NCBI GenBank assembly: GCA_964620675.1
Contig: CAZUJU010000012.1
Coordinates: 2,251 to 66,250 of the forward strand
DNA length: 64,000 nucleotides
Direction of reading: 5' to 3'
From: an uncultured Thiotrichales bacterium
GTDB lineage: Bacteria > Pseudomonadota > Gammaproteobacteria > UWMA-0217
The notes beneath the pieces were generated by a model that worked only from the letters and a program-made list of their open reading frames with translations, made no database searches and was not told the origin of the DNA. This document shows, in pieces, positions 1,374-47,439 of this stretch. The stretch's first letter is position 1; each line of letters starts with the position of its first letter. The translations under genes and the position numbers were made by a program.

Positions 1374-4154
1374 CTACTCGGTTGGTTCGGTTTGTAATGC
1401 CAGCTCCGCCGCGCGGACCGTGGGCAGTCCGAGCGCGTAGATCGCGAGCGGCGAAGCGGCGTGATCGGCAACGGGATCACGGCTACGCGCCAACCGCACC
1501 GCGCGGGCCACGGCCAAGTCGTCGGAGCGGTAGGTTTGATGCAGCGCCCGATGCCGCGCGGCCGCGTCGGAATCGCCCTGCTCGGTATGCGCCAGGGCGA
1601 GATTATAATGCGCCGCGGCATGCTCCGGGTCGATCTCCAACGCGCGCCGCAACCAGATTTCGGCGCGCGCCAGCAGTTCGGCGCGTTCGTCACGGCGCGC
1701 CTCGCCGCGGGCTTGCCGCGCCCGCTCCAGCAGGGTGCGACCCAACTGATTGAGCAGGTTGGTATCGTAGCCGAAGTCGAACCCGCGCGCCCGGGCCTCG
1801 GCGAACCCGGTTTGCGCAAGTGCTTCGAAGGTTTCGATCGCGGCGTCGAGACGGCCGTTCTGGGCATCGACCAACGCGCTCAGCCAAGCGATGGTCCAAG
1901 GTGCTGGGCGCGGTTCGAAATCGGCGGCGCGTTGCAACGCGGCCGCGGCCTCGCGCAGGCGGCCCTCCTGAAAATAGACCCGCGCCAGATTGAGCGGTCC
2001 GTCGCCACGCCCGAGCCGTTCCACCTCGGTAAAGGCGACCTCGGCCTGGCGCATCTGGCCGGTGGCGGCGCCGCCACCGCGTTCGCGCAGAAGCCCGATA
2101 CCGTAATCGTTCCAGCGCTCCCAAGCCGCGACCGGGAACACCTGTGACGGCGCCAATCCATCGCCGACGGGCAGCGTTACCCGGTCGCTGGCGAGTGTGA
2201 TGATCGGCAGATCATTGGTCGCGGCCGGGTCATCGCGCATAAAACGCACGAACGCCAGATCGAACTTGCGATATTGCACCCGCGCTTCGATCTCCAGCGG
2301 ACCCACCACATCGGCCGGCACCTCAAGCGCGTAATGGACGACGCTCGCCGCCCCCGGCGGAATCTGGTGGTCATAGAGCGGGACGAAGATATCCTGGGCG
2401 TTGCGCCGCTGGATACGGTTGCCGTCCTGATCCAGCACATACGCGTTCAGGAAATACGCCGTCGGATCGACCCCGCCGTCACGGTCGCGCGCACCACTGT
2501 GAGCCAGCAGCCGATCGCCCGCGCGCACCGTGACCTCCAGCCACAGTTCGTTGGAGTCGGACGTCCCCTGCGTCAGATGATGTCCAACCCGCAACGTGCG
2601 CACCACGGTTTCGAGGAGGTAATGCCGGCCCGGTTCGAGCACCGGCAGTGCCGGACGCAACGGCGCGTGCAGCCTGCCCTCGATCGTTCCGCCGTCGCGT
2701 AATCCAAACAAGTCGACCCGCACACTGCCTTCGAGCATCGCGCGGCGCGCCGCGTTACCGTCGTCGTCGAGCCCGACCCACTGCGGCACGGCGGTATTGG
2801 CCGCGGCGAATCCGTGATGATGCACACTCAGGCGGCCGGAACCGTCAAAGTCCCGCGCGGCCGGGTCGGAGGACGGCGTCAGCGCCATGTGACATTCGCT
2901 GCACCGACCAACCGCCTGCGCAGGGTAGTAAAAACTGTCGACTCGATGCCCCGAGACCCCGCTCTGCAGAAAGCTGTCGTAATGGTTCTGCCCCCGCAGC
3001 CAGCGATAGTGATTGAGCTCGATCGGGAGGTGGACCTTGTGGCAGGCGGAGCAGAATTCCGCGCTGCGATGGACCGGTTTGAGATAGGTGGCCTTGTGCA
3101 ATTCGGGCTTGGCCTTGATCAGCTGACGGTTGAGGTAGCGCAGCGCCGGCTGCGTGCTGAACGCAAACGGGTAGTTGATTGGATCCGCGAGGGTGTAGTC
3201 GCCGTTACCGCGCGGTGAGTTGACCTGCGTGATCGCGTGGCAAGCGACGCAAGTCAAACCGGCGTGGGCGGTCGGATCCTGATCGGGATCAAAATCCGCC
3301 CGCAGAAAGCGACCGTCGAACAGCGGCGCCGGGTCATGGCAGGCGGCGCACAAGGCACTGGCTTGCAGGTTGCCGTCGCGTCGCTGTGCCACCCGCCGCG
3401 TCTCCTCGACACTCGCGCGGTAAGCCGGGTTATTGAATGAACTCAAGCGGTGCATGCTCTGTTCGGCTTGACGCGCAATCTCACCGTGGCACTCGGCGCA
3501 GGTCTGGTCGGTCATCAAGCGCTCGGCCGGAATCCGCGTCTGGCCGCCCGCCAGCGTGGTCAGCGCCGGGTAGAACGGACGCGCGTCGGCCGTCGCGGGT
3601 GGGGGGGGTTCAATGAATCGCAGCGCGAGCATGCCAACGGCGAAACTGAGCGCGACTGCGCCCCACACCAAGCCCACGCCCCAATGAAGCGGCGGCCCAG
3701 CCAGGCGATGCAGGACAAACAGCCAGACGACGACAAACGGCAGCAGCACGTGGATCCAGTAGGCGGCACGACGCACCTCGGGATGGTTCACTTCAAACAC
3801 CCCGAAGCGCGTTAGCAGCAAGCCCGACAGCACCAGCAATGTGCCGCTGGCAAACAGCGCCAACCCCGCACGCGCCGCATAGCGGTTGGGACGCCGCCAC
3901 GCCCGCCGCAGATGGCGGATCGCGAACACCCCGAACGGTACACTCAGAATCAATCCGAGTAGCAGATGTAGCAGGAACATACCGAGGTAAAAGGCATCCT
4001 GCAGCGAACGCTGTTGCATCTGCTCGCCGACAGTGATCGCGGCAAGATAAGCCGAGTTCACCACGAGTAGCGCAAACAACAGCAATACGACGCCGAGCCA
4101 AGGCCTCAGCGCGCGCCCCACCGCCGAATGGCGCGGACGCTTGGGTTCGTTCAT
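1374..4154 (-). CDS. Membrane-anchored pentaheme cytochrome c with C-terminal TPR-like domain (about 927 aa)
   Basis: ORF 1374..4346. The likely start is the internal Met MNEPKRPRH..., whose ATG ends at 4154 and has GGAGGG 6 nt upstream. Five N-terminal TM helices are followed by five CxxCH motifs (CAECH, CAACH, CVACH, CSACH, CSECH). C-terminal TPR-like repeats are present (e.g. AAAHYNLALAHTEQGD). Confidence 0.75.
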   Translation of the reverse strand: MNEPKRPRHSAVGRALRPWLGVVLLLFALLVVNSAYLAAITVGEQMQQRSLQDAFYLGMFLLHLLLGLILSVPFGVFAIRHLRRAWRRPNRYAARAGLALFASGTLLVLSGLLLTRFGVFEVNHPEVRRAAYWIHVLLPFVVVWLFVLHRLAGPPLHWGVGLVWGAVALSFAVGMLALRFIEPPPPATADARPFYPALTTLAGGQTRIPAERLMTDQTCAECHGEIARQAEQSMHRLSSFNNPAYRASVEETRRVAQRRDGNLQASALCAACHDPAPLFDGRFLRADFDPDQDPTAHAGLTCVACHAITQVNSPRGNGDYTLADPINYPFAFSTQPALRYLNRQLIKAKPELHKATYLKPVHRSAEFCSACHKVHLPIELNHYRWLRGQNHYDSFLQSGVSGHRVDSFYYPAQAVGRCSECHMALTPSSDPAARDFDGSGRLSVHHHGFAAANTAVPQWVGLDDDGNAARRAMLEGSVRVDLFGLRDGGTIEGRLHAPLRPALPVLEPGRHYLLETVVRTLRVGHHLTQGTSDSNELWLEVTVRAGDRLLAHSGARDRDGGVDPTAYFLNAYVLDQDGNRIQRRNAQDIFVPLYDHQIPPGAASVVHYALEVPADVVGPLEIEARVQYRKFDLAFVRFMRDDPAATNDLPIITLASDRVTLPVGDGLAPSQVFPVAAWERWNDYGIGLLRERGGGAATGQMRQAEVAFTEVERLGRGDGPLNLARVYFQEGRLREAAAALQRAADFEPRPAPWTIAWLSALVDAQNGRLDAAIETFEALAQTGFAEARARGFDFGYDTNLLNQLGRTLLERARQARGEARRDERAELLARAEIWLRRALEIDPEHAAAHYNLALAHTEQGDSDAAARHRALHQTYRSDDLAVARAVRLARSRDPVADHAASPLAIYALGLPTVRAAELALQTEPTE

Positions 4155-4364
4155 ACGTCCCTCCGGGCGGCGCTCAAGAGTATCGGATTCCACCGTTGAT
4201 TTTAACGCCGCAGGACCGCCAGACGCTTGATTTTGATCATCACCTTTGGCCAGAACTATTCTCGGTTCAGCGGCGCATACAAAACGCCGTTCACATTTTT
4301 GTGTTGGTGTACAATCATAGCGCCGAAGAAATTCACATCCACACAAACAAAGGAGACCTATAAG

Positions 4365-6614: not shown

Positions 6615-6726
<112 letters not shown>

Positions 6727-6776
6727 CAACAAATGTAAACTTTGTTGACACGCGTGGCTGCGGATCACGCCTATCA
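6727..6776 (+). promoter_or_regulatory. Putative promoter region for 6874..7275: 7-bp inverted repeat caacaaa-N7-tttgttg overlapping a perfect -35 TTGACA (6744-6749); -10 not convincing
   Basis: caacaaa (6727-6733) and tttgttg (6741-6747) are reverse complements. TTGACA is at 6744-6749. No good TATAAT lies at 16-18 bp spacing (cgccta / tatcag only). Confidence 0.25.
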
Positions 6777-9701: not shown

Positions 9702-10391
9702 TCAATGCGGGTCATCCACGCGTGCCAAGTACGCATCGGACCCGCTGCCGTTCGGTTTTCGGCCGTAGCGATTGATCAACATCCACACCAGGGTGATGAA
9801 TTCGGATTGATTGAGACGCGGCTCGCCAAGCACCGCCAGCAAGAACCGTCGCGCGCCGATGAACAGGGGCCAGACTGCGATCCGGCTGGAGCCGAAGGCA
9901 TCGAGCGCACCCCAGCCTTGCGTGGGTAGCTTGAGACAGTGTTTGAGGCGCGCCGCGTGGCGGAGTTGAACCGCCGCGAGGTCCGCGCTCAACGCCGACA
10001 AGGCGTCGACGGTCGCATCATCGAGCCCGATGCGCGCCAGCGGAAAGCCGTTTTCGTCGACCAGCAAGGCCTTGCCGATCGAACTCAGCCGGTGTAGCGG
10101 ATCCTGCAAATGGCGACCGAAACCCGCCTCGATGATACTGCGCGGGGCGCGAAAACCCTGCACCCACGCCAGAGTCTGGGCCTGGTGCAACAGTTGCAGC
10201 GCGTGCTGCTCATCCGCGACATGGAGCCAATGACTCAAGCGCGGCAGGTCGACTTGCGGCGTTTCGGCCTCGCCCAACAACGCCAGCAACAAGCGCCGCA
10301 ACGGTTCCGACTCGCAGCCGGTCACGGCGTAAAACGCCCCGGCGCTGGTTGGCTGCAAATAGAAGTGATCGATGAGTTTATAAGCGGACAT
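9702..10391 (-). CDS. Hypothetical protein, last gene of protoglobin/Roadblock operon (possible degenerate Roadblock-like segment)
   Basis: 229 aa with balanced composition. The segment ...KALLVDENGFPLARIGLDDATVDALSALSADLAAV is reminiscent of Roadblock/LC7 cores. It lies 6 nt downstream of the previous gene. Confidence 0.5.
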   Translation of the reverse strand: MSAYKLIDHFYLQPTSAGAFYAVTGCESEPLRRLLLALLGEAETPQVDLPRLSHWLHVADEQHALQLLHQAQTLAWVQGFRAPRSIIEAGFGRHLQDPLHRLSSIGKALLVDENGFPLARIGLDDATVDALSALSADLAAVQLRHAARLKHCLKLPTQGWGALDAFGSSRIAVWPLFIGARRFLLAVLGEPRLNQSEFITLVWMLINRYGRKPNGSGSDAYLARVDDPH

Positions 10392-10397
10392 CGCGGC

Positions 10398-11168
10398 TTA
10401 AACGAGTGCCGAAGTCCGGAGTCGAAACCTCGCACTCAGCTTGTCCCAAAGCTCGGGCAGCGCCAGCCTTCGGCCCGACAGGCGCGTGTAGGTCGCGGTA
10501 AAGGCATCCCCAAGGTCGTGACGTCGATACAGGGCGAGCAACTCCATGCTGGCGATCGGGTCACCAGGGTCGTCATCAAGCGTGCGCTCCAGCAACATCC
10601 GTGCATCGTCGATCCGGCCCTGTTCGATCCAGGCCCAGACCTGCTTGATCGCGGTACCCTGATCGGTATCGGCCGCGCCATCTCGTGCGTCGAGGGCGAC
10701 GATCGCGGTGACCCCTGCCACGCTACGCGACAGCAGCACACCCTGCATGTCTGGCGCAACTTCATCCGGCGCCACGCCACTGTCGAGTCGCCGCAGCAGC
10801 CATTCGAACTGGTCCTTGGGCAGCAAACTCAAGGTCTGCTCGAGCAGATTGACGCGCAGCGCACGGCCTTGGCGACCCAAAGCGATATTGAGATCCACCA
10901 GCGCGTGGAAACAACGCGCGGCGTCGGCTCGCGCCAAATGGAGCGAAACACGCTGAGCATGACTTAACAGGTCGCGCGGATTGCGGCAAATACGGCGCTC
11001 CAGCAGATCCGCGTGACGCACCCACGAGCCGATGTGCTCGGGATCCGGCAGCAGTTCCCGGGCCACCGGCAACAGTGCCGGTTCGACCCAAAAATTCCGC
11101 ACCGCCTCGAGCGAGCCCGCCGCGCCGGCGTCACTGCTCACGATTTCGAACACCGCATCCGCATCCAT
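10398..11168 (-). CDS. Hypothetical protein (256 aa), helical/TPR-like C-terminus
   Basis: There is no recognizable catalytic motif. The C-terminal part (...AWIEQGRIDDARMLLERTLDDDPGDPIASMELLALYRRHDLGDAF...) is TPR-like. It lies 12 nt downstream of the protoglobin gene. Confidence 0.5.
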   Translation of the reverse strand: MDADAVFEIVSSDAGAAGSLEAVRNFWVEPALLPVARELLPDPEHIGSWVRHADLLERRICRNPRDLLSHAQRVSLHLARADAARCFHALVDLNIALGRQGRALRVNLLEQTLSLLPKDQFEWLLRRLDSGVAPDEVAPDMQGVLLSRSVAGVTAIVALDARDGAADTDQGTAIKQVWAWIEQGRIDDARMLLERTLDDDPGDPIASMELLALYRRHDLGDAFTATYTRLSGRRLALPELWDKLSARFRLRTSALV

Positions 11169-11180
11169 CCGCGCTACCGA

Positions 11181-11750
11181 TTACCGCGCCGCCGACAGCA
11201 TGCTGTCGATCTCCAGGCTCACCAGGCGATACAGCAAGGTTTCGTTGAGCCCCGCGGCTTTATCGACCGCGGTGAACATATTGCGCTGGTAGCTTTCGGC
11301 GATCAGCGCCAGCACCACGGCCTGCAACGCATGGACGGCCTTGATCAGTTTCAGCGCCTCATCGGCCGGAAACGTGGCCAAGGCACGCTGGCCGAGGTAG
11401 GTCAGAATCCAGCCCCACATCCCCGCGACCATCGCGTTGTTGACGCGGCGTTTGATATGCACCAGCCCGACGTAGGTTTGCCATTCCCAATAGGGCAGAT
11501 CGAACGGGCCGGACAGGGTGCGCCGGTACCAGTCGCGCAAGGTCTGCTCGCGTTGCGGCCGCTCGTCATCGGTGAAGACCTTGCGCGTGGTCGGATGCTG
11601 GAACAGATGGTCGTAAAAGCCCTGTACCAGCCCATCCTCCCAGGTCAGCAGCACCTCTTTGTGACGAATGATCACATCGGCGTCGTCCTGGCCGAAACGC
11701 ACGGAATCCGGAATCTGATCGAGAATCTCCGCGGTTAAATTGTCGGTCAT
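11181..11750 (-). CDS. Stand-alone protoglobin / sensor-globin domain protein (189 aa)
   Basis: ...HKEVLLTWEDGLVQGFYDHLFQHPTTRKVF...LRDWYRRTLSGPFDLPYWEWQTYVGLVHIKRRV... matches the sensor-globin (Pfam Protoglobin) pattern: FYD.L...P.....F, W..L..G.YD, G..H.+.RV. The proximal His is likely in GLVHIKRRV. No output domain is present. Confidence 0.75.
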   Translation of the reverse strand: MTDNLTAEILDQIPDSVRFGQDDADVIIRHKEVLLTWEDGLVQGFYDHLFQHPTTRKVFTDDERPQREQTLRDWYRRTLSGPFDLPYWEWQTYVGLVHIKRRVNNAMVAGMWGWILTYLGQRALATFPADEALKLIKAVHALQAVVLALIAESYQRNMFTAVDKAAGLNETLLYRLVSLEIDSMLSAAR

Positions 11751-11771: not shown

Positions 11772-12140
11772 TTACATATTGAGGATGCGCGTGACTTCAG
11801 CGGCGGCCGCACTGGCCTCCAGCCGGACCAGGCCGAGATTGCCGCGCGCCGACGCGCGTACCGCGAGCACGCCACGCGGCCCCGCGAGGTAGATCAATAT
11901 CAAGCCGTCGCGTCCTTTTACCATGACTTCCTGGGTTTCACCGAGCGCGGCATTCGATGCAATGCGTCCGCCAAGACCCGAGGCGGCGGCGCTGACCGCG
12001 GCCACCCGCACGGCCTCCTCCTCGGGGAAATCGGTGGAAATCGAGAGTCCTTCATTGCTCGCGATCATCACCCCGGAGATATCGGGTACGTTTTCGCGCA
12101 ACTCGGTGTGGATCCGTTTCAATTCGTCGTTCTTGCTCAT
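11772..12140 (-). CDS. Roadblock/LC7 (MglB-like) domain protein
   Basis: 122 aa. ...ISGVMIASNEGLSISTDFPEEEAVRVAAVSAAASGLGGRIASNAALGETQEVMVKGRDGLILIYLAGPRGVLAVRA... is a typical Roadblock/LC7 alpha-beta-beta-alpha-beta core. Confidence 0.75.
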   Translation of the reverse strand: MSKNDELKRIHTELRENVPDISGVMIASNEGLSISTDFPEEEAVRVAAVSAAASGLGGRIASNAALGETQEVMVKGRDGLILIYLAGPRGVLAVRASARGNLGLVRLEASAAAAEVTRILNM

Positions 12141-12194: not shown

Positions 12195-13961
12195 TCAATC
12201 CGGGCCGTGGTGGGTGGGAACCAGCCGCTGCAAAGTCGCGCGCAAACGTTCGAAAAATCCGGTGCGCTTTGGCTGCGCGCGGTGACATGCGCCATACGGG
12301 CAATAATCGGGGGCATCGGGCGCCAGACGGGCCGCGCCGGGATTGGCGAGCTGGATCGATTGCAGCTCGCAACAGGCGTTATGGAAGCTGATCAGGGTTG
12401 CGTAGTCGACCCCGGTTTCGCGCGCGATGGTCGCGAAGTCCGCCGCTTGCGTCGTCATGAACGCCGCCAGCTGCAGATGCTGTGGGGTATGCGGAACCAC
12501 AGTGAAATCCGGGGCCTCGCGCAGTCGAATTTGCCCTTCCGGGTCGGCAAACTGGCACAGGCGACCGCGTGAGCCGTACAACGCCGCGCAATAGAACAAT
12601 TGCCAGAGCGGACGCGGTTTGACGCCCGGCAGCAGCTGCCCCGCGGTCACATCGCGGGTCTGAAATCGCCAGACCGGCACGGTATAAAGATCGGGAAACG
12701 CGTCCAATGCGGCCGGGAAAAGAAACGTCCCGGTAATCGGCAAGATCTGGAGCGGCGGATAATCCTCCGCAATCACCTCGGTGGCATGCCCCTGTGTCGT
12801 CAGCGCACGCACCAGTCCGAGCAGCCGAACCTGAGGGCGAAACAGGCGCGATGGGCGCGCGAGTTCGCGAATCGGGTGCGGTGACGACATCGGCAGCAAT
12901 CCCTGAAGCGACGGCTCCGCGTCCGGCGCATCCGCACCGATTGGCAACGACGCGTTGGAACGCGCGGTGCGGCCACCGATCGAAACCACGCTCGACACCA
13001 CGACAACCGGCGGCTCGCCGCGCGGCGCCGCCGGCACCGGGGTCGCCAACGCGACATCGATCACCGCTTCGTCATTGGCGAGCACCGCGGCTGGTGGCGC
13101 CTCCGGCGGCGACCGTTCCGGCGGCGAAAACGCCTCTGCGGCGACGCTCGCGCCGGTCGCAGCCCAGTGCGTCGACGTTCCGTCGCCCGCGCCGTCGCTT
13201 GCGGGGGAAACGCGACCCGCGACGGCGGTCAAGGGCGCAGCCGGCCAGCGCGGTTTGCCGCGACGAGGCGGCGGCGCCAACACGCGGCGCTCAGGGTTCG
13301 GACGGTAAAAGTCACTAATCAGCTGGGCGATGATTTCACCGGTGGGACTCGGATCGAGCACCCGCAGCGCCGCTGGCGATCCAACGCTCAGGCTGACGTT
13401 CTGCTCACTGGTGACGGTACTCGATGCGGCTCCGTCCCCTACACTGAACGGCTCCGTCAGCGGGGCCTGCGGCGATTCCATCGGCGCCAAGTCCCGATCT
13501 GCCGCGATCTCCGGCACCGGGACCACGGCGATCGCCGAGGTGGCCACCGGCGGCAGGGCCTCGCCCAGACGACCGGATTCGGCAAACCGTCGCGGTTGGC
13601 CTTGGCGGTATGCCAGCCGCAGCGAGCGCTCGATGGATTTCAGCGCCCCGACCAGTGCCGGGTAGGTCGCTGGTAGCGCGATCCGCGGTACCGGAAAGGC
13701 GGCGACACCGGTGTCCCGCGCCAACAGAACCACCGGCAAATCCGGGTCGGCAGTTGACGCAAGTGGCAACCAAAACGCGGCACCCGCCGTACTCTCGATA
13801 TCGATCAGCACCGCATCGGCCTCGGCCGCCGATGCGACGGTCCGCCAAGCGGACAGTTCGATCCCGCAGGCCAAATCCAGCACCGCCTGTTGCAGCGTAA
13901 GCGTCGCGGCGTCCAGCCCAATTGTCGCCAATGCGTAAGAATTCATGAATCGAGTATTCAA
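12195..13961 (-). CDS. Large protein with degenerate receiver (REC)-like N-terminus, approx. 200-aa Pro/Ala-rich linker and conserved C-terminal domain of unknown function (588 aa)
   Basis: The N-terminus (...AVLIDIESTAGAAFWLPLASTADPDLPVVLLARDTG...) resembles a CheY-like fold. The linker is Pro-rich (PPPRRGKPRWPAAPL...SPPERSPPEAPPAAV...). The C-terminal approx. 230 aa form a globular domain (..WRFQTRDVTAGQLLPGVKPRPLWQLFYCAALYG...). It is the first gene of the operon. Confidence 0.6.
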   Translation of the reverse strand: MNTRFMNSYALATIGLDAATLTLQQAVLDLACGIELSAWRTVASAAEADAVLIDIESTAGAAFWLPLASTADPDLPVVLLARDTGVAAFPVPRIALPATYPALVGALKSIERSLRLAYRQGQPRRFAESGRLGEALPPVATSAIAVVPVPEIAADRDLAPMESPQAPLTEPFSVGDGAASSTVTSEQNVSLSVGSPAALRVLDPSPTGEIIAQLISDFYRPNPERRVLAPPPRRGKPRWPAAPLTAVAGRVSPASDGAGDGTSTHWAATGASVAAEAFSPPERSPPEAPPAAVLANDEAVIDVALATPVPAAPRGEPPVVVVSSVVSIGGRTARSNASLPIGADAPDAEPSLQGLLPMSSPHPIRELARPSRLFRPQVRLLGLVRALTTQGHATEVIAEDYPPLQILPITGTFLFPAALDAFPDLYTVPVWRFQTRDVTAGQLLPGVKPRPLWQLFYCAALYGSRGRLCQFADPEGQIRLREAPDFTVVPHTPQHLQLAAFMTTQAADFATIARETGVDYATLISFHNACCELQSIQLANPGAARLAPDAPDYCPYGACHRAQPKRTGFFERLRATLQRLVPTHHGPD

Positions 13962-14457
13962 GCCAGCCGTCGGATCGGTGCAGGGCGCGGCGGATCACGG
14001 TAAGACACCGCTCCGTTCTCTGGACATTCTAGGAAATCCCCCGAGGCGGAAGTGTGAGCGAGAACGCATTTATCCCGCTGGAGGGTCTGAAATTCCCGAC
14101 GAATTTGACTTATGTCATGCGCGGCCAACTGCACAAGCATCGCGATTGCCCGGACTTTGCTCGGCGAAGTGCATCCACTCGGCGCTGCGCTGGCACTCGA
14201 CGTGAAGTACCCGATTACCACGAGGCGGCATGCCAGGTTGGGTAGGCGGCAACTCGACCACAGGGATGCGGTCGACGAGTCCCCAGGGGCGAGTTTTTGG
14301 CGTCTCCCGCTAACCCAGCCCGAGGCGGCTTTTATCCTCCGGGAAACGTCCTCGCAATGAAAGTCATCCCGATTCGCGGCTCGTGACTTACGGAAAATTG
14401 CCGCAAGTTTCGTGACCTCTGCTAGGCTTTGTGCCGTCCATCTTCAGGAACGTTTGC

Positions 14458-15438
14458 ATGCACCCGAGTCGATCGATTCCGCTCCCGTGGCAAGCTTTAT
14501 GGCTGCTGGCTTGGGCCGCCACGGTCGCAGCCGAACCGGTACCGGTGACAGTCAAACCGGTCGACGCGTTGACCTTCCTGCCCGAGACCTCGGCACCGGC
14601 CACGGTCACGAGCCTGAACCGCAGCACGCTGAGCGCGCAAATCACCGCGTCGATCGAGTCAATCGCGGTGCAGGTTGGGGACTCGGTCAAGGCAGGGCAG
14701 GTCCTGGTTCGCCTTGACTGTCGCGACCACGAACTCGCCGCGCAGAGCGCCTCGGTTCGCGCCACGCTGGCCGAAAAAGAGTCGCGGCGAGCGCAGTCGC
14801 TGAAGCAAAGCAGCAATATCGCCGAGCAGGCGGTTAATCAGGCTGAGGCGGAACTGGCGCAGGCTCGGGTGGCGCAACAACAGGCGCGATTGCAAGTTGA
14901 GCGGTGCGTGGTCAAGGCCCCATACAGCGGGGCGGTGCAAGCCCGGCTGGCGGGCGAAGGCCAGCTCGCCACGCCGGGCACGCCGTTGCTGGAACTGGTC
15001 GACACCCAGCACCTCGAAGTTTCGGCCCAAGCCCCGTCACTTCAGGCGGAGGCGCTCGCCACTGCCCGCGCCATTCATTTCGAGTCCCTGGGAAACCCGC
15101 TACCGGTCACCGTTCGCAGCGTTGCCCCATGGATCGATCCCGGCGCTCGCACGCGCGAAATCCGGCTGCGATTCACCGCCGGCACGACCGCGCCCGGCAC
15201 CGCGGGGCGTGTTGTGTGGCGCACCTCAGAGCCGCACTTGCCGTCCGACTTCTTGTCCCAACGCGCCGGTGCGATCGGAGTTCTGATCGTCGAACCCGGC
15301 GACCTCACCCGTTTCGTCCCCCTACCCGGTGCCGAACTCGGCCACCCTGCCCCGGTCGGCGAACTGCCGGCGGACGCGCGGATCATTATCGACAATCGTT
15401 TTGGTTTGCAGGACGGCGATCCGGTCAAAGTCCAGTAA
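14458..15438 (+). CDS. RND efflux membrane fusion protein (periplasmic adaptor subunit, HlyD family)
   Basis: Signal/anchor (MHPSRSIPLPWQALWLLAWAATVAA), then the lipoyl-like motifs VQVGDSVKAGQVLVRLD and CVVKAPYSGAV, with coiled-coil between them. It immediately precedes the RND pump. The ATG at 14458 is the internal Met of ORF 14431..15438. Confidence 0.85.
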   Translation: MHPSRSIPLPWQALWLLAWAATVAAEPVPVTVKPVDALTFLPETSAPATVTSLNRSTLSAQITASIESIAVQVGDSVKAGQVLVRLDCRDHELAAQSASVRATLAEKESRRAQSLKQSSNIAEQAVNQAEAELAQARVAQQQARLQVERCVVKAPYSGAVQARLAGEGQLATPGTPLLELVDTQHLEVSAQAPSLQAEALATARAIHFESLGNPLPVTVRSVAPWIDPGARTREIRLRFTAGTTAPGTAGRVVWRTSEPHLPSDFLSQRAGAIGVLIVEPGDLTRFVPLPGAELGHPAPVGELPADARIIIDNRFGLQDGDPVKVQ

Positions 15439-15490
15439 CGCCCTCGACCCACCAAGCGCCCATCGCCACCTGCCGGATGAACTCTGAACC

Positions 15491-18400
15491 ATGCTGAAAC
15501 GGCTGTTCGAAAACCACGTCCTCGCAAACCTGACCTTTGTGCTGGTGCTGTTAATCGGGGCGTTGTCGTATTGGCAATTGCCGCGCGAGCAGGATCCGAC
15601 GATCAATTTCAACTGGATCGATATCTCGACCATCGTGCCCGGCATGGCCGCCGAAGACATGGAAAAGCGCGTGACCGACGTGCTCGAAGATGCGATCCGC
15701 GGCGTTTCCGACATCAAATTCGTCTCCTCGACCAGCCGCGAGAGCATCTCCACCATCCTGGTGCGCTTCAACGACATTTCGGAGCGGGTCTTCGACAAAC
15801 GCGTGAATGACCTGCGGCGCGAAATCCAGAACAAGGAACGCGAGCTGCCGGCGGGAGCGGAGTCGCCTTTTATCTTCGAAGTCACCACCGCGAACGCATT
15901 CCCGACCGCGACGATCGTGGTCGCCGGCCCGGCCGACGATGAAAATCTGCGCAAGCAGGCCGAGCTGATCGAAAAAGACCTGGGACGGATCAAGGGTGTC
16001 GACCGGATCCTCGGCACCGCCGTGCACAACCCCGAGTTGCAGGTGAACTTCGACCCCGCGGCGCTGGAGCAACTGGGCCTGTCGCCAACGGCGCTCGCCG
16101 ACACCGTCGCGCTGTACTATCGCGATCTCTCGGCTGGCACGACCGAGGTGGGCGCGGTTAACTGGGTCGTCCGCGTCGCCGGGAGCCAACCGGACCCGAT
16201 CTATCTCGCGGACCTGCCGGTCATCGGCGCTGAGGGTGAGATTCGCCTCGGCGACGTGGCTCAGGTCATTCGCTCGCGTGCGCGGCCGCAGCAGCTGGTG
16301 CACTTCGAAGGGCAACCGGCGGTGATGCTCGCGGTCACTAAACAGGCCTCGTCGAACACCCTGAAGCTGGTCGAAAACCTGCAACGCTACGTCGATGAAC
16401 GCAACCAGTTTCGCGCCGGCACCGGGGTTCGGCTGGTGGTGGCGGATGACCAGACTGAGATCACCCGCAACGCGCTGCGGATTATGCAGACCAACGCGTT
16501 GTACGGGCTGTTGTTGGTCCTGCTGGTGACCTGGGCGTTTCTCGGTTTCCGGATGGCGGCGCTGGTATCGATCGGCATCCCGTTCATCCTCGCCGGTACC
16601 TTCTGGGTACTGGATACGCTGGGGCAGACACTGAACGTCTCGGTGCTGCTCGGGGTGGTGATCAGCCTCGGAATGCTGGTGGATGACACGGTTGTGATCG
16701 CCGAGGGCATGTTCTATCGCCTCCAGCGCGGCTGGGAAAGGATGCAGGCGGCACTCGACACCCTGCACGAAATTGCCTCGCCGGTGACCGCATCCGTGCT
16801 GACGACGATGGCGGCGTTCCTGCCGCTGATGCTGCTGCCCGGCATTCTCGGCAAGTTCATGCTGGTCATCCCGCTGGTGGTGACCATCGCGCTGGCGATC
16901 AGCCTGATCGAGGCCTTCTGGATGCTACCGATCCACGTCGTTTCGGCGCGGGTCGGATTCGACCGACCGTCGCGGATTCACCGGCTACGCACGCGCTGGC
17001 TGCATCTGCTGCGGGTGCGTTACACCCGGCTGCTGATTCGGGCGATGCGTTGGCCGCGGCTATTGCTCGGCGGGTTCTTCATGTTGTTTGCGTTCGCGCT
17101 GGCCTCCGCGGTGGCCGGCCAGGTCAATCCCGCGCTGTTCAACGACCCGGTCTTCAAACGCCTGCTGGTCAAGACCGATTTCTTCGCCAGCGATCCGCTC
17201 CGGCTCTATTACGTCAACCTGGAGATGCCGAACGGCACCCCGCTCGAAGCCACGCTCGCGAAGGCGGTTGAAATCGAGGCCGTGGTGCGGCGCCACCTCG
17301 AACCCGGCGAGTTGCGCAGCATCGTGACCTACTCCGGGCAGATGTTCACCGAAGCGGCACGCTTTCAAGGCAGCCACTACGGCCAATTGCTGGTTGCGCT
17401 GAACCCACGTCACGACGAAATGCGCGAGGTGGACGCGGTGATCGACTCGATGCGCGCGGACGTCACCGCCGTGCTCGGTCCAGCCAAAACCTGGTTTCTT
17501 CGCATCGCAGGCGGCCCGCCGACGTCCAAACCCATCAATATCAAGGTGCGCGGCAGCGAACTCGACGAGATCCGCGCCGCCACCGCCGCGCTCAAGACGC
17601 TGCTCGCGGACAGCGGCTGGGCCAGCGACGTCAGCGACGACGACAGTCCCGGCCTCAACGAAATGGTGCTGCAACTCGATAGCGACGCGGTGCGGCGCGC
17701 GGGCTTGAATCCGCAGGGAGTGCTGCGATCGATCCAGCTCTGGGTGGATGGCGAGATCATCACCGCCGTGCAACACGAGGGCGAAAAAATCGAGGTGAGG
17801 GTTCGGGCACGACCCGAGCGCCACACCGGGGTCGGCGATCTGCTCGGGCGCCGGGTACCGCTCGCCGGCGGCGGCAGCGTCCCGCTCGGCGAACTCGTGC
17901 GCGCCACCAATCAGCCCGGTCTCGGCAATGTGCGCCACTACAACTTCCGCCGCGCGATCACGGTGGAGGCCGACATCGACAAGGCGCAAACCGATACGGT
18001 CACCGCCAACCGGTTCATCCAGAAGCAATGGCAAGCACTCGGCACCCGCTTTCCGAACGTGCAACTCGACTTCTCCGGCGAACTCGACGACATCAACGAA
18101 AGCCTCGGCGCGATCGGCAAACTGATGCTGTTCGGCGTGCTGCTGATGTACGCCATCGTTGGCACCCAATTTCGCAGCTACGTCCAGCCGCTGATGATCC
18201 TGATTACGGTGCCGATGGCCTTCACCGGGGTCGTGATCGGCCTGCTCGTCACCGCCAACCCGTTGTCGCTGTTCACGCTGTACGGCGTGGTCGCGCTCAC
18301 CGGGATCGCCGTCAACGCCGCCATCGTTTTGATTCACTCCGCCAACAGCCGGCTCGGCACCGGCATGTCGGTGTTGCACGCCATCCTCTACGCCGCGCGA

Positions 18401-18670
18401 CGGCGCGTCATTCCGATCCTGATCACCGCCACCACCACCATCGCCGGGCTGTTTGCACTCGCGACCGGGCTCGGCGGAAAATCGCTGCTGTGGGGGCCCG
18501 TCGCCACCGCGATTGTCTGGGGGCTCGCAGTCTCGACCGTGCTGACCCTGTTCATCGTGCCGATCCTGTATCGCCTGTTCATGCCCCGCAGCTACCTGAA
18601 CCCGCGCCGCCCCCCGCGCCGCGCGTGGCGGAAGCGGGCCGCACCCGACCTAACCACGGCGCAACCCTGA
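15491..18670 (+). CDS. RND efflux transporter permease (AcrB/AcrD/CzcA superfamily), 1059 aa
   Basis: MLKRLFENHVLANLTFVLVLLIGALSYWQLPREQDP... shows 12-TM RND topology with two large periplasmic loops and a duplicated architecture. Confidence 0.9.
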   Translation: MLKRLFENHVLANLTFVLVLLIGALSYWQLPREQDPTINFNWIDISTIVPGMAAEDMEKRVTDVLEDAIRGVSDIKFVSSTSRESISTILVRFNDISERVFDKRVNDLRREIQNKERELPAGAESPFIFEVTTANAFPTATIVVAGPADDENLRKQAELIEKDLGRIKGVDRILGTAVHNPELQVNFDPAALEQLGLSPTALADTVALYYRDLSAGTTEVGAVNWVVRVAGSQPDPIYLADLPVIGAEGEIRLGDVAQVIRSRARPQQLVHFEGQPAVMLAVTKQASSNTLKLVENLQRYVDERNQFRAGTGVRLVVADDQTEITRNALRIMQTNALYGLLLVLLVTWAFLGFRMAALVSIGIPFILAGTFWVLDTLGQTLNVSVLLGVVISLGMLVDDTVVIAEGMFYRLQRGWERMQAALDTLHEIASPVTASVLTTMAAFLPLMLLPGILGKFMLVIPLVVTIALAISLIEAFWMLPIHVVSARVGFDRPSRIHRLRTRWLHLLRVRYTRLLIRAMRWPRLLLGGFFMLFAFALASAVAGQVNPALFNDPVFKRLLVKTDFFASDPLRLYYVNLEMPNGTPLEATLAKAVEIEAVVRRHLEPGELRSIVTYSGQMFTEAARFQGSHYGQLLVALNPRHDEMREVDAVIDSMRADVTAVLGPAKTWFLRIAGGPPTSKPINIKVRGSELDEIRAATAALKTLLADSGWASDVSDDDSPGLNEMVLQLDSDAVRRAGLNPQGVLRSIQLWVDGEIITAVQHEGEKIEVRVRARPERHTGVGDLLGRRVPLAGGGSVPLGELVRATNQPGLGNVRHYNFRRAITVEADIDKAQTDTVTANRFIQKQWQALGTRFPNVQLDFSGELDDINESLGAIGKLMLFGVLLMYAIVGTQFRSYVQPLMILITVPMAFTGVVIGLLVTANPLSLFTLYGVVALTGIAVNAAIVLIHSANSRLGTGMSVLHAILYAARRRVIPILITATTTIAGLFALATGLGGKSLLWGPVATAIVWGLAVSTVLTLFIVPILYRLFMPRSYLNPRRPPRRAWRKRAAPDLTTAQP

Positions 18671-18676
18671 GAGCCT

Positions 18677-19615
18677 GTGAAAATATCCCGCAATCTACTG
18701 CGGACGCCCCTGAACCTCACCGCACCCCGCGATCCGGCGACGTACATCGGTCGTTTTGCCCCGTCGCCCACTGGCCCGCTGCACCTCGGCTCCCTGGTCG
18801 CCGCGCTGGGCAGCTACCTTGACGCCCGCGCACACGACGGCCTTTGGCACCTACGCATCGAAGACCTCGACCCACCACGCGAAATACCTGGCGCCGCGGA
18901 TTCGATCCGGCGCACCCTCGAACGCCACGGGCTCTTTTGGGACGGCCCCGTGTGCTACCAAAGCACCCACACCGAGGCCTATCTCGACGCGCTTGAGCAC
19001 TTGCATCGTAATGGCCTGCTCTACCCCTGCGCCTGCACCCGAAAAACGCTCGAACATACCGCCCAACCCGGCGCGATGGGACCGATCTACCCCGGCACCT
19101 GCCGCACCCGCCGCATCGACCCGACCCACGGCGCCCACGCACTGCGCGTACAAACCGACGACACCCCCATCGCCTTTGTCGACCGCCGGTGCGGGCAGGT
19201 CGTTCAGCGCCTCGCGCGCGAACTCGGCGACTTCGTCCTGCGTCGCGCCGACGGCCTGTTCGCATACCAACTCGCCGTCGTTGTCGACGACGCCGCGCTC
19301 GCCATCACCGACATCGTCCGCGGCGCCGACCTGCTCGACAACACCCCGCGCCAGATCTACCTACAACGCCTGCTCGGCCACCCCACCCCGCGCTACGCCC
19401 ACCTCCCAATCGTCACCCACGCCAACGGCGAAAAGCTCAGCAAACAAACCCACGCCCCCGCGCTCGACGACCGCTGCGCCACCGCAAACCTCCTCGACGC
19501 ACTCGCGTTTCTCGGCTTCGAGCCGCCCGCCGAACTGAGTCAGGAATCCTGCGAAGGGGTATTGAACTGGGCGCTCTCGTGCGACTGGCGCGCGGAGGCT
19601 TTCCAAGGTGCCTAG
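18677..19615 (+). CDS. gluQ: Glutamyl-Q tRNA(Asp) synthetase
   Basis: YIGRFAPSPTGPLHLGSLVAAL (HIGH-like), ...CACTR...PGTCR (zinc cysteines) and ...HLPIVTHANGEKLSKQ (KMSKS-like) are present. A GluRS catalytic-domain paralog of about 300 aa. Confidence 0.85.
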   Translation: MKISRNLLRTPLNLTAPRDPATYIGRFAPSPTGPLHLGSLVAALGSYLDARAHDGLWHLRIEDLDPPREIPGAADSIRRTLERHGLFWDGPVCYQSTHTEAYLDALEHLHRNGLLYPCACTRKTLEHTAQPGAMGPIYPGTCRTRRIDPTHGAHALRVQTDDTPIAFVDRRCGQVVQRLARELGDFVLRRADGLFAYQLAVVVDDAALAITDIVRGADLLDNTPRQIYLQRLLGHPTPRYAHLPIVTHANGEKLSKQTHAPALDDRCATANLLDALAFLGFEPPAELSQESCEGVLNWALSCDWRAEAFQGA

Positions 19616-19727: not shown

Positions 19728-19910
19728 CGTGCTGGGTTCCGGCATTCCTCATCGCACCTCACTGTGCACTGGGTTCCGGCATTCCTCATTGCACATCCCT
19801 GTGCACTGGGTTCCGGCATTCCTCATTGCACATCCCTGTGCACTGGGTTCCGGCATTGTGCATGTACATCCCTGTACACTGGGTTCCGGCATTCCCTGCC
19901 GGAATGACGG
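19728..19910. repeat. Tandem array of about five copies of a 37-nt direct repeat (core gtgcactgggttccggcattcctcattgcacatccct), non-coding
   Basis: Copies at approx. 19728-19763 (degenerate), 19764-19800, 19801-19837 (identical to the previous), 19838-19873 (1-nt deletion, variant), and 19874-19910 (partial, ends in the inverted repeat cattccctgccggaatg). The unit is not a multiple of 3. No unique spacers are present. Confidence 0.85.
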
Positions 19911-45724: not shown

Positions 45725-45781
45725 CTTCCGAGATGTTAGGATTAGCGGGTTAACCCCGAGCGCCCCTAGAGTACGCGACTG

Positions 45782-46777
45782 ATGTTCGGATTCAAGAAGA
45801 CCCCGCCCACCGCACCGCAATCACCGGCTGAAGGTCAGGAGAAAAAAGGCCTGTTCGCGCGTCTGCGCGCGGGTCTCGCCAAAACGGGACACACGCTCAC
45901 CGACGGCATGAGCGAAGTCCTACTCGGGCGCAAAGCGATCGATGACGAACTGTTCGAAGAACTCGAAACCCGTCTGCTGGTCGCCGACGTCGGCATGGAC
46001 GCCACCCAACGCATCATCGATGACATCACGCAACGGGTGCGGCGCAAGGAACTCACGGAACCCGGTGCGCTTTACCGCACGCTCGGCGAAGTGATGCAGG
46101 AACGCCTCGCCCATTGCGAACACCCGCTCCAGATCGACCTGAGCCGCAAGCCGTTCGTCATTCTGGTCGTCGGCATCAACGGCGCCGGCAAGACCACCAC
46201 GATCGGCAAGCTGGCGCACCAGCTCCGGGCCGAGGGCCTGAGCGTGATGCTCGCGGCCGGCGATACCTTCCGCGCCGCCGCCGTCGAACAACTCCAGGTC
46301 TGGGGTGAGCGCAATCATATCCCGGTCATCGCCCAGGGCACCGGCGCGGACAGCGCTTCGGTGATCTTCGACGCGCTGCAGGCCGCCCAATCGCGCGGCA
46401 TCGATGTCCTGATCGCCGACACCGCCGGGCGCCTGCATACCCAGGACCACCTCATGGAAGAGCTGAAAAAGGTCAAGCGCGTGTTGACCAAACGCGACCC
46501 CTCGGCACCACATGAGACCTTGCTGGTGATCGACGGCGGAATCGGACAGAACGCGCTACGCCAAACCGAAGCTTTTCACGCCGCGATTCACCTGACCGGA
46601 CTGGCCGTCACCAAGCTTGACGGCACCGCCAAGGGCGGCATCCTGTTCGCGATCGCCGAGAAGCATAAAATCCCGATACGGTTGATCGGCGTCGGCGAAG
46701 GCATTGAGGATCTGCGCACGTTTCGTAGCGCCGAGTTTGTACAGGCGCTACTAGGATTGGAACAGGATCCCGCATGA
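45782..46777 (+). CDS. ftsY: Signal recognition particle receptor
   Basis: NG domain: ILVVGINGAGKTTTIGKLA, DTAGRLH, TKLDGTAKGG. Confidence 0.9.
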   Translation: MFGFKKTPPTAPQSPAEGQEKKGLFARLRAGLAKTGHTLTDGMSEVLLGRKAIDDELFEELETRLLVADVGMDATQRIIDDITQRVRRKELTEPGALYRTLGEVMQERLAHCEHPLQIDLSRKPFVILVVGINGAGKTTTIGKLAHQLRAEGLSVMLAAGDTFRAAAVEQLQVWGERNHIPVIAQGTGADSASVIFDALQAAQSRGIDVLIADTAGRLHTQDHLMEELKKVKRVLTKRDPSAPHETLLVIDGGIGQNALRQTEAFHAAIHLTGLAVTKLDGTAKGGILFAIAEKHKIPIRLIGVGEGIEDLRTFRSAEFVQALLGLEQDPA

Positions 46778-47439
46778 TCGAACTGCGCCACCTCGGCAAA
46801 CGCTACGCCAGCGGCCACGAGGCCCTGCTCGACATCAATCTCGACATTCACAGCGGTGAGTTCGTGTTCCTGACCGGACGCTCCGGCGCCGGCAAGAGCA
46901 CCTTGCTCAAACTGCTTGCGCTGATCGAACGGCCGACCCGCGGCAGCCTCAAGGTCAATGGGCATGAAGTCTCGAAACTGCCGGCGCTATCCGTGCCGCG
47001 GTACCGCCAAAATATCGGCATCATCTTTCAGGATCATCGCCTGCTGCCGGACCGCAGCGTGTTTGAAAACGTGGCGCTGCCCCTGCGAATCACCGGCCTC
47101 GAAACACGGGTCGTCACCAAACGCGTGCACGCCGCGCTCGAAAAGGTCGGCTTGCTTCACAAGGAACGCGCGTTGCCCATGACGCTGTCGACCGGGCAGC
47201 AGCAACGGGTCGGCGTGGCCCGCGCGATTGTGAACAAACCCGCGGTGCTGCTTGCGGACGAGCCCACCGGAAACCTCGATCCGGGTTTGTCGGAGGAGAT
47301 CATGCAGCTGTTCGTCGACTTCAATCAGGTCGGCGTGACGGTGATCATCGCCACCCATGACCCGCAACTCATCGATCGCTTCGGCGAACGCATCCTCGAA
47401 CTCGACTACGGTCGCCTGAAAACCGATCTCACGTTATGA
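46774..47439 (+). CDS. ftsE: Cell division ATP-binding protein
   Basis: ABC ATPase: GRSGAGKSTLL, LSTGQQQRVGVARAI, LLADEPTGNLD. It overlaps ftsY by 4 nt. Confidence 0.9.
   Translation: MIELRHLGKRYASGHEALLDINLDIHSGEFVFLTGRSGAGKSTLLKLLALIERPTRGSLKVNGHEVSKLPALSVPRYRQNIGIIFQDHRLLPDRSVFENVALPLRITGLETRVVTKRVHAALEKVGLLHKERALPMTLSTGQQQRVGVARAIVNKPAVLLADEPTGNLDPGLSEEIMQLFVDFNQVGVTVIIATHDPQLIDRFGERILELDYGRLKTDLTL

Follow-up and report, generated by a model that had tools for sequence, protein, structure and literature searches.

Among prokaryotes, the systems that come closest to the small-G-protein and Ragulator/Rag signalling of eukaryotes are bacterial modules built on a Ras-like GTPase and a Roadblock protein, such as MglA/MglB, the conservons, and Mfp. 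To our knowledge, the inputs that these modules sense are mostly unknown. In this work, we describe a gene, here called X, that lies in a stretch of 64,000 nucleotides (the window) from an uncultured Thiotrichales bacterium (assembly GCA_964620675.1, contig CAZUJU010000012.1, positions 2,251 to 66,250). X occupies positions 12195..13946 of the minus strand of the window, stop codon included, and encodes a protein of 583 amino acids (aa) that heads an operon with a Roadblock gene and a globin gene. On balance, and with somewhat better than even confidence, we take X to be the adaptor or scaffold of a cytoplasmic Roadblock-based O2-sensing module that derives from the conservon/PATAN-GTPase-Roadblock type of small-GTPase system.

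Four kinds of described protein come close to X. In the conservon/Mfp systems of Actinobacteria, the genes are arranged in the order of a kinase-like sensor (CvnA/MfpE), a Roadblock protein (CvnB/MfpD), a DUF742 protein (CvnC/MfpC), and a GTPase (CvnD/MfpB). Of the mycobacterial proteins, MfpC (DUF742) serves as the guanine nucleotide exchange factor (GEF), and MfpD (Roadblock) as the GTPase-activating protein, of the CvnD-type GTPase MfpB (PMC11343762, PMC9769811). In RomR, a Pro-rich linker joins a receiver (REC) domain to a C-terminal region rich in Glu, and the protein works with MglA, MglB, MglC, and RomX (PMC12719032). PatA-type regulators (PixE, PixG, and PatA) combine a PATAN domain with REC; PATAN domains are protein-binding output modules often encoded near MglA/MglB homologues, and are membrane-localised and act independently of REC (bioRxiv 10.1101/2021.06.11.447907). 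Finally, PATAN (DUF4388) proteins are found in operons of Deinococcota, for example WP_015065393.1 of T. thermophilus pTthSNM1-7b, and these are annotated but uncharacterised.

X has the three-part layout that a previous inspection of the DNA letters (the sequence-only reading) had described. A conserved block of some 120 aa at the N-terminus is followed by a linker of about 225 aa and a C-terminal domain (C-domain) of about 230 aa. As that reading had also stated, X heads its operon, being the first of five minus-strand genes in the order X, a Roadblock/LC7 protein of 122 aa, a protoglobin of 189 aa, and proteins of 256 and 229 aa, with intergenic gaps of 54, 21, 12, and 6 nt. The Roadblock/LC7 gene, which directly follows X (11772..12140, minus strand), matches Pfam Robl_LC7 at 2.3e-16, and its relatives in PDB are 7f8m, 9jue, CvnB5 (3leq), and Rv3364c. 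The third gene (11181..11750, minus strand) encodes a single-domain sensor globin (Pfam Protoglobin, 1.1e-19). Its Tyr46 (in FYD) and His98 (in G-x-x-H) align with the globin-coupled-sensor globins 2w31 and 5ohe, and we take these residues to be the distal TyrB10 and the proximal HisF8. The fourth gene (10398..11168, minus strand) encodes a helical protein of 256 aa with a weakly TPR-like C-terminus (TPR_16, TPR_14, and TPR_19, all below the cut-off). The 229-aa product of the fifth (9702..10391, minus strand) combines an N-terminal domain of about 90 aa with a Roadblock-like C-terminal half (Robl_LC7 0.0028 over residues 95-142, with weak or faint matches in its orthologues) and has no match among PDB sequences. 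Neither of these last two proteins is taken to be DUF742-, PATAN-, or receiver-like, as their hhalign scores stayed at the background of 11-17. Scans of the five-gene region for promoters, terminators, and Rfam families gave nothing above chance.

The sequence-only reading had proposed a look at the homologues of X and their genomic partners, and the Roadblock gene is tied to X in every relative with enough flanking DNA. The X-family contexts are of two kinds, one with a Roadblock gene, an O2-sensor gene, and two family-specific proteins, and the other with a small GTPase of the CvnD type, encoded next to the X-family gene or fused to its product. All five genes recur in a wholly different neighbourhood on the contig of the relative P0003 (L004). 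Orthologues of the 256-aa protein adjoin X in L001-L004, L008, L010, and L013-L015; the 229-aa protein gives the strongest phmmer matches to distant loci among the four accessory proteins (2e-78 to L010); and orthologues of both are present in all of these loci and, among the loci compared, in X-type operons only. In five independent loci (L008, L010 from Candidatus Thiodiazotropha, and L013-L015), a 122-aa Roadblock gene followed by an ODP gene is divergent from X, which is itself followed by proteins of about 255 and 210 aa. ODP, which in these sister clades comes directly after the Roadblock gene, is an oxygen-binding di-iron protein of the metallo-beta-lactamase fold, and in Treponema denticola it senses O2 for chemotaxis (bioRxiv 10.1101/2020.03.11.986844). 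Since either a protoglobin or an ODP directly follows the Roadblock gene, the gene at that position is an O2-binding sensor of one type or the other, and nothing else points as strongly to the input signal as this exchange of non-homologous O2 sensors in one and the same operon slot.

The second kind of context connects the family with small GTPases. In L009 and L011, the X-family gene is directly followed by a small GTPase of the ATP_bind_1 type (176-197 aa). P0143, P0072, and P0095 are C-terminal X-GTPase fusions, and P0097 is a fusion with only a P-loop and weak AAA/MMR_HSR1 matches. One X-family member (P0114/P0157) is fused to a genuine C-terminal REC domain. When the GTPase of L011 was used as a tblastn query against plasmids, it led to plasmids of Thermus and Deinococcus, where an operon encodes a DUF4388 (PATAN) protein, a CvnD-type GTPase, a Roadblock protein, and then a protoglobin or a 159-aa protein. 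These operons lie at 3372-5501 in L017, 2986-6282 in L018, and 3001-5220 in L019-L021; EAL, HD-GYP/HD, or LuxR-type genes are often found downstream of them, and the cluster of T. brockianus contains two protoglobins. The Deinococcota operon is apparently uncharacterised; it resembles a soluble 'conservon' with a globin as sensor, and its hosts can be cultured. Between its Thermus GTPase and those of Streptomyces conservons, the identity is about 40%. A further cluster with a CvnD-type GTPase, but with neither an X nor a DUF4388 protein, lies on the megaplasmid of Ralstonia solanacearum (L016, 3617-7705) and encodes, in order, a 124-aa protein, the GTPase, a 436-aa fusion of an ABC ATPase and a dual-specificity phosphatase, a 135-aa protein, a Roadblock protein, a 188-aa helix-turn-helix (HTH) protein, and a 126-aa protein.

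Two of the accessory genes of the X operon, those for the Roadblock protein and the globin, are related to genes of the Deinococcota operons. By phmmer, the Roadblock protein of the window matches the Roadblock proteins of Thermus operons at 1e-34 and 1e-30, compared with 7e-9 for an unrelated Roadblock protein, and the globin matches the Thermus-operon protoglobins at 6e-45 and 7e-42. By sequence, the two proteins are thus clear homologues of Thermus DUF4388-operon genes. It follows from this homology that X occupies the operon slot of the Deinococcota DUF4388 protein, and the DUF4388/X slot corresponds to the DUF742 (CvnC/MfpC) slot of the conservons.

Profiles of the proteins that occupy this slot were compared with hhalign, using 39 sequences for the C-domain of X, five for the Deinococcota DUF4388-operon proteins, and three for DUF742. 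The C-domain matched the DUF4388-operon profile with a local score of 32.05 (E 3.5e-4, probability 37%), and in global mode the two were co-linear over 205 columns (E 4.2e-5). In 150 column shuffles, the scores were 12.5 +/- 2.2 (maximum 19.8) in local and 1.9 +/- 1.9 (maximum 11.9) in global mode; the reversed-profile control gave 14.9 and 5.6, respectively, and unrelated operon proteins 11-17. When only the halves containing the winged helix and the C-terminal tail (described below) were compared, the score was 31.4 (E 2e-5, probability 77%, 77 columns), against 8.9 +/- 2.1 (maximum 19.5) in shuffles. The winged helix of X also scored above its shuffles with the DUF742 profile over 39 HTH columns (27.0, E 1.1e-3, probability 20%; shuffles 10.9 +/- 1.6, maximum 16.1), and so did the Deinococcota DUF4388-operon proteins (28.0; shuffles 11.2 +/- 1.7). 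Neither X nor its relatives gave a match to Pfam DUF742 (PF05331). On these profile scores, we regard the winged-helix/tail module of X as homologous to that of the DUF4388-operon adaptors, and its winged helix as probably homologous to that of DUF742.

X shares with the DUF4388-operon proteins its operon position, the family of the GTPases with which its own family pairs, and an approximate size (about 210-236 aa for these proteins and about 230 aa for the C-domain of X). They differ in that the Deinococcota proteins contain a recognisable DUF4388 core (Pfam 1.2e-8), whereas the alpha/beta sub-domain of X has no significant similarity to that core and no Pfam match, and in that X has in addition a pseudo-receiver, a 225-aa linker, and an invariant NAC motif; moreover, the X operon lacks the GTPase and contains two extra genes. 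The conservons and the X systems follow a common logic of a sensor, a Roadblock protein, an HTH adaptor, and, where present, a GTPase, and the GTPases of X relatives are of the ATP_bind_1/CvnD type, as in conservons. However, the X systems have a soluble protein as sensor, either a haem globin or a di-iron ODP, rather than a membrane kinase-like protein, X is three to five times the size of DUF742 proteins, has extra domains, and stands in an operon without a GTPase, and the hosts are Gammaproteobacteria rather than Actinobacteria. With PatA-type regulators, X shares the combination of a receiver-type domain and a protein-binding output domain, and the family member P0114/P0157 even resembles PatA in having a true REC at the C-terminus. 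In X itself, the receiver-like domain is instead N-terminal, so that the order is reversed, and it is degenerate; in addition, X does not match PF14332. The part of the window inspected for type IV pilus genes (1-26 kb) contains none. Taken together, a place among the DUF4388(PATAN)/DUF742-type adaptors of CvnD-type GTPase-Roadblock systems is better supported for X than one beside RomR.

Several points weigh against this reading. The 64-kb window contains no MglA-like or CvnD-like GTPase: only two of its open reading frames (ORFs) have a Walker A motif together with further GTPase motifs, namely 45770-46774, which is presumably FtsY, and 46729-47436, an ABC ATPase. Likewise, no CvnD-like GTPase was found within 5-10 kb in nine loci with the Roadblock-sensor layout, although the same search was positive in L005-L007, L009, L011, and L016-L021. 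The central player of the ancestral systems is therefore missing here. In the profile comparison, the alpha/beta half of X scored 14.0 against the DUF4388 core, which is not significant (shuffles 10.4 +/- 1.7, maximum 14.7), and PF14332 matched neither X (E<=1) nor any of 125 relatives (E<=0.01). Because of this, and since the score of the whole domain stems from the winged-helix/tail half only, X is not filed as a PATAN/DUF4388 protein. Furthermore, hhalign assigns moderate probabilities (37-77%), no more than five and three sequences went into the profiles of DUF4388 and DUF742, respectively, and column shuffling is a lenient control. The N-terminal domain is assigned as a receiver from a predicted structure whose TM-scores are modest, and the contacts between the proteins, the binding of haem, the sensing of O2, and any output of the module are all inferred.

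With these reservations, the adaptor reading suggests the following mechanism. The haem globin would bind O2 (or NO/CO), and this would alter its interaction with a Roadblock platform consisting of the 122-aa Roadblock protein, possibly paired with the 229-aa Roadblock-like protein. X would dock on this platform via its winged helix, in place of the DUF742 exchange factor (MfpC/CvnC) or the DUF4388 protein, and its pseudo-receiver, its linker with the helix motif, and its amphipathic tail helix may recruit or localise downstream partners. As no GTPase is linked, the signal would leave the module either by way of a GTPase from another locus or directly by way of the 256-aa and 229-aa proteins. 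The GTPase in this branch has been either dispersed or replaced, and the constant presence of the two extra proteins appears to favour replacement. One step further, the system might be a descendant of conservon/PATAN systems that has no G protein at all, in which an interchangeable O2 sensor acts directly on a Roadblock heterodimer and X, and in which the 256-aa and 229-aa proteins replace the GTPase; we put this forward tentatively, as a possibility that falls well short of even.

The gene itself was delimited as follows. An uninterrupted ORF fills 12195..13961 of the minus strand. Its first possible start is a TTG at 13961, which gives the 588 aa proposed in the sequence-only reading; five codons later, an ATG at 13946 (MNSYALATIGLD...) gives 583 aa. 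X most likely initiates at this ATG, because the 583-aa product is identical in sequence to a protein of a Thiotrichales metagenome-assembled genome (MAG) at NCBI (P0001, labelled 'hypothetical protein'), and because the starts of its relatives P0002, P0003, and P0004 align at the Met that the ATG encodes. The ORF itself is thus confirmed. P0002 is a relative from a stromatolite metagenome (628 aa, 54% identity; L001/L002), P0003 a more distant one (603 aa), and L003 comes from a second Thiotrichales MAG. Upstream of X, an intergenic region of 484 nt (13947..14430), presumed to hold the promoter, separates the gene from a divergent two-gene cluster of the plus strand (14431-18670) that encodes proteins of 335 and 1059 aa, which we take to be the periplasmic adaptor and the inner-membrane pump of a resistance-nodulation-division efflux operon. 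In L003, an ORF of 1059 aa is also found upstream of X. The region contains no match to the sigma-70 consensus and no Rfam family, and the promoter was not located.

An AlphaFold2 model of full-length X was built with a family alignment of 125 sequences. In this model, the N-terminal domain (residues 1-118; 13593..13946, minus strand) is, as the sequence-only reading had expected, a receiver-like alpha/beta domain. Residues 1-115 have a predicted local distance difference test score (pLDDT) of about 90 and the order b1-a1-b2-b3-a3-b4-b5-a5, that is, five strands and three clear helices, with a2 and a4 absent or weak. When the full model was compared with PDB by Foldseek, nearly all of the listed matches, including the top ones, were receiver domains (E 1e-3 to 5e-2, TM(target) 0.5-0.64), among them DctD, RcpA, CpxR, KdpE, and the pseudo-receiver of FrzS; the pseudo-GTPase CENP-M and H-Ras gave weaker matches. 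Sequence comparisons gave less. X has no match to Pfam Response_reg (PF00072) at E<=1; only two of the 125 family members match it, and in P0114, which was inspected, the match is the separate C-terminal domain. In an hhalign comparison with a small REC profile, the N-domain profile was not significant (probability 1.4%, E 0.036).

The same alignment is nevertheless in register: the phospho-acceptor Asp pairs with D49, and the Lys-Pro of b5 pairs with L91-P92. Thus, among the active-site positions of X, D12 and D49 are acidic, A76 stands for T/S, and L91-P92 stands for K-P. In the family, the phospho-acceptor position is D, N, R, or G and the acidic position of b1 is often S, K, or G, so that the phospho-acceptor set, whose Asp the sequence-only reading had singled out for a check, is not conserved. 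The b5 residue is R or K in most members and L in X, and W34 and P92 are the sole invariant residues of the domain. On the model, 'degenerate receiver' seems a fair description at the level of the fold; the domain is not demonstrable as a member of the receiver family, and to judge from these substitutions, phosphorylation is unlikely to be a conserved feature of the X family. A second protein with an X-type N-terminal domain (hmmsearch 2.5e-16) is encoded at 3-632 of the minus strand in L005-L007, a few kilobases from the X-GTPase fusion; the X-type N-terminal domain is therefore also present in other proteins.

The linker (residues 119-350; 12897..13592, minus strand) is long, rich in Pro and Ala, and of low complexity, just as the sequence-only reading had it. 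Over about 225 aa (residues 126-350), it contains 18% Ala, 15% Pro, 10% Val, and 10% Ser, and AlphaFold2 gives it a pLDDT mostly below 50, so that it is predicted to be disordered. Its length varies among close relatives, for example by indels relative to P0002. Since most family members are only 320-400 aa long and have short linkers, the long linker is peculiar to the clade of X. In a pairwise comparison of X with P0002, residues 1-125, 198-220, and 350-583 form conserved blocks, and the sequences between them are poorly conserved and variable in length. The middle block ('DPSPTGEIIAQLISDFYRPNPER'; 13287..13355, minus strand), with the pattern DPxPTGEIIAQLISDFYRPxPER in X and P0002, is near-identical while the flanking linker diverges, and in the model it contains a short helix (residues 202-214). 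The motif is found in only 14 of the 125 aligned family members; we regard it as a candidate partner-binding motif.

The C-domain, which is 77% identical to that of the closest relative, is predicted to be folded, with pLDDT above 95 for residues 355-540 of the full model, and pLDDT 88.6 and a predicted TM-score of 0.80 in a separate model of the domain. Its alpha/beta sub-domain is followed by a winged helix, and a spacer of variable length then leads to an amphipathic basic helix. The alpha/beta sub-domain (a-b-b-b-h-b-a, residues ~351-470; 12537..12896, minus strand) carries the motifs RLLGL, P-x-I-x-P, and AALxGSxGRL. The winged-helix-like sub-domain (residues ~471-535; 12342..12536, minus strand), delimited by the model, partial Foldseek matches, and the family alignment, is predicted to have three helices plus a wing. 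Family-wide, the motifs of the C-domain are RLLGL, P-x-I-x-P, AALxGSEGRL, PDF, and VIDFxNAC. The last of these lies in the third helix of the winged helix ('YATLISFHNACCELQ'; family consensus VIDFxNACxxxGL), where N523, A524, and C525 (12372-12380, minus strand) are near- or fully invariant. This putative recognition helix is devoid of Lys and Arg, an argument against DNA binding by X, and the invariant Cys525 in it could be a redox-sensitive or a contact residue. The Cys residues of X are at positions 27, 453, 464, 525, 526, 549, and 554. The sequence-only reading had stressed a conserved C-domain with several Cys: the domain is conserved, but C525 is the only Cys kept throughout the family, and 'CPYGAC' survives just as 'CPY' in the nearest relatives.

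After the variable spacer, the basic helix at residues 561-577 ('KRTGFFERLRATLQRLV'; 12216..12266, minus strand) is again conserved family-wide, with the consensus GLLxRIRxLF and a modelled helix at 564-574, and it also aligns with 'GLLQRVLRAL' of the Thermus and Deinococcus proteins. It is a candidate membrane- or partner-binding helix, and by analogy it could play a role like the membrane localisation of PATAN. In searches against Pfam, NCBIfam, PADLOC, and PDB sequences, X gave nothing usable, matches to PTPRCAP and DARPin being noise, and no Pfam match to the C-domain was found among the 125 family members. Foldseek found no fold match to the C-domain model in PDB (best E 0.3), so the C-domain has no assignable structural family; the sole consistent partial matches were winged helices of about 70 residues.

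A profile of the C-domain, run with HMMER against 1.84 billion representatives, retrieved 316 proteins at E<=1e-3, 95 of them at E<=1e-10. Thus, as judged by this profile, the C-domain defines an unannotated family of at least 316 clusters. It is nearly always at the C-terminus of proteins of 300-600 aa, and in about 90% of the 125 members aligned, the receiver-like domain forms the N-terminus. A scan of genome contigs brought up a single close relative. A word-indexed homologue search returned just two matches for full-length X, because the linker saturates the candidate list, and none for the C-domain alone, so that even the identical P0001 was missed; its negative results are thus uninformative. 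All named members are labelled 'hypothetical protein', and their hosts are gammaproteobacterial MAGs of Thiotrichales and Candidatus Thiodiazotropha, so the remark in the sequence-only reading that X is unusual in a gammaproteobacterial context did not hold up. The types of component are all known, namely the receiver-like domain, the winged helix, Roadblock, the sensor globin, and the conservon/PATAN-GTPase logic. The X family, the architecture of X, and a GTPase-less five-gene module with interchangeable O2 sensors are undescribed in the literature and libraries searched, and a literature search for Roadblock combined with protoglobin, ODP, or a sensor globin found no paper.

A trivial explanation of X would be that it is an annotation artefact, in which two genes or a frameshifted pseudogene are bridged by a non-coding GC-rich spacer. 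The high GC content of the DNA (0.61 in the window), which yields long spurious ORFs, the presence of several overlapping ORFs on both strands, and the low complexity of the linker would all fit. However, X stays a single ORF in four relatives with different linker lengths (P0002 in L001/L002, L003, and L004), which identifies it as a single gene. The GC content at third codon positions is raised throughout (0.71, 0.79, and 0.73 over three segments) and peaks in the linker, so the low-complexity middle is therefore translated; in addition, the linker contains a conserved in-frame motif, and the N- and C-terminal domains co-occur in most of the family. The artefact, and with it the two-gene or frameshift possibility that the sequence-only reading had allowed for, is effectively refuted and retains next to no probability. 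That reading had itself proposed a RomR-like scaffold, and its outline remains in part. RomR and X have the same order of a receiver-type domain, a Pro-rich disordered linker, and a C-terminal interaction region; Roadblock (MglB/MglC-like) genes stand in the X operon, the FrzS pseudo-receiver is among the fold matches, and the C-terminus of RomR binds the Roadblock protein MglC (PMC12719032). Nevertheless, RomR has a bona fide REC, whereas X has a degenerate domain without a Response_reg match, and the short Glu-rich C-terminus of RomR contrasts with the 233 C-terminal residues of X, which are rich in Leu, Ala, Pro, and Arg and contain a folded domain of 190 aa. Neither an MglA-like GTPase in the window nor a candidate for RomX among the operon genes was found, the Roadblock protein is nearest to conservon-type CvnB/Rv3364c-like proteins with MglB absent from its PDB matches, the GTPases of X relatives are of the CvnD type, and most of the family lacks a long linker. 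As no sequence relationship between X and RomR was detected either, the resemblance is an architectural analogy and not homology. That X is a RomR-type polarity scaffold, recruiting an MglA/MglB-like module to the poles for motility control, is accordingly very improbable.

It is also unlikely, if slightly less so, that X is an atypical one-component transcription factor whose winged helix binds DNA, with the pseudo-receiver and the invariant Cys as regulatory or redox-sensing elements and the Roadblock protein and the globin as co-regulators. The three helices plus wing and the invariant Cys in the third helix would suit such a protein, and a receiver-like domain followed by a C-terminal HTH mimics classical response regulators. 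However, the putative recognition helix lacks basic residues, the probably homologous HTH of DUF742 belongs to a GTPase exchange factor rather than a DNA binder (PMC11343762), PATAN-type regulators are considered unlikely DNA binders (bioRxiv 10.1101/2021.06.11.447907), no DNA-binding family was matched significantly, and family members that are fused or adjacent to small GTPases indicate signalling between proteins. A more serious competitor, which we still think rather unlikely, is that X is a GEF-like adaptor of a CvnD-type GTPase encoded elsewhere, in an ordinary split conservon-like system. The pairing and fusion of X relatives with such GTPases, the conservon-like Roadblock protein, and the likeness of the winged helix to DUF742 are all consistent with it. 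What speaks for replacement and not dispersal is that nine independent Roadblock-sensor loci have two extra conserved proteins instead of a nearby GTPase; for the present genome, this pattern refers to the 64 kb inspected.

Some other features of the window may be noted. A tandem repeat of the heptamer CTCCTGC (16 copies, 94% matches) occupies the intergenic positions 6615-6727 and yields a spurious 'RRQE(A/T)GG' ORF on the minus strand. A second tandem repeat, with 4.5 copies of a 37-bp unit and 91% matches, lies at 19732-19895, a region without a convincing ORF, downstream of the ORF 18677-19615, which is presumably a GluQ-tRNA-synthetase-like gene. On the minus strand, 1374-4346 encodes a protein of 990 aa that has several CxxCH haem motifs and, at its C-terminus, TPR repeats, and such a protein is also found near the operon in L001/L002 (NrfB-like and TPR matches, both faint).

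The X family ties a Roadblock module to defined gas sensors and thereby provides a testable input signal (O2, NO, or redox). In some lineages of the family, the module appears to manage entirely without the GTPase. If the system indeed operates without a G protein, sulfur-oxidising Gammaproteobacteria would possess a class of cytoplasmic signal transduction for gas sensing that has not been described before. The related operons on Thermus and Deinococcus plasmids, beside EAL/HD-GYP genes, offer experimentally tractable entry points. The hosts of the X family are uncultured sulfur oxidisers (Thiotrichales and Candidatus Thiodiazotropha symbionts), for which positioning in gradients of O2 and sulfide is central.

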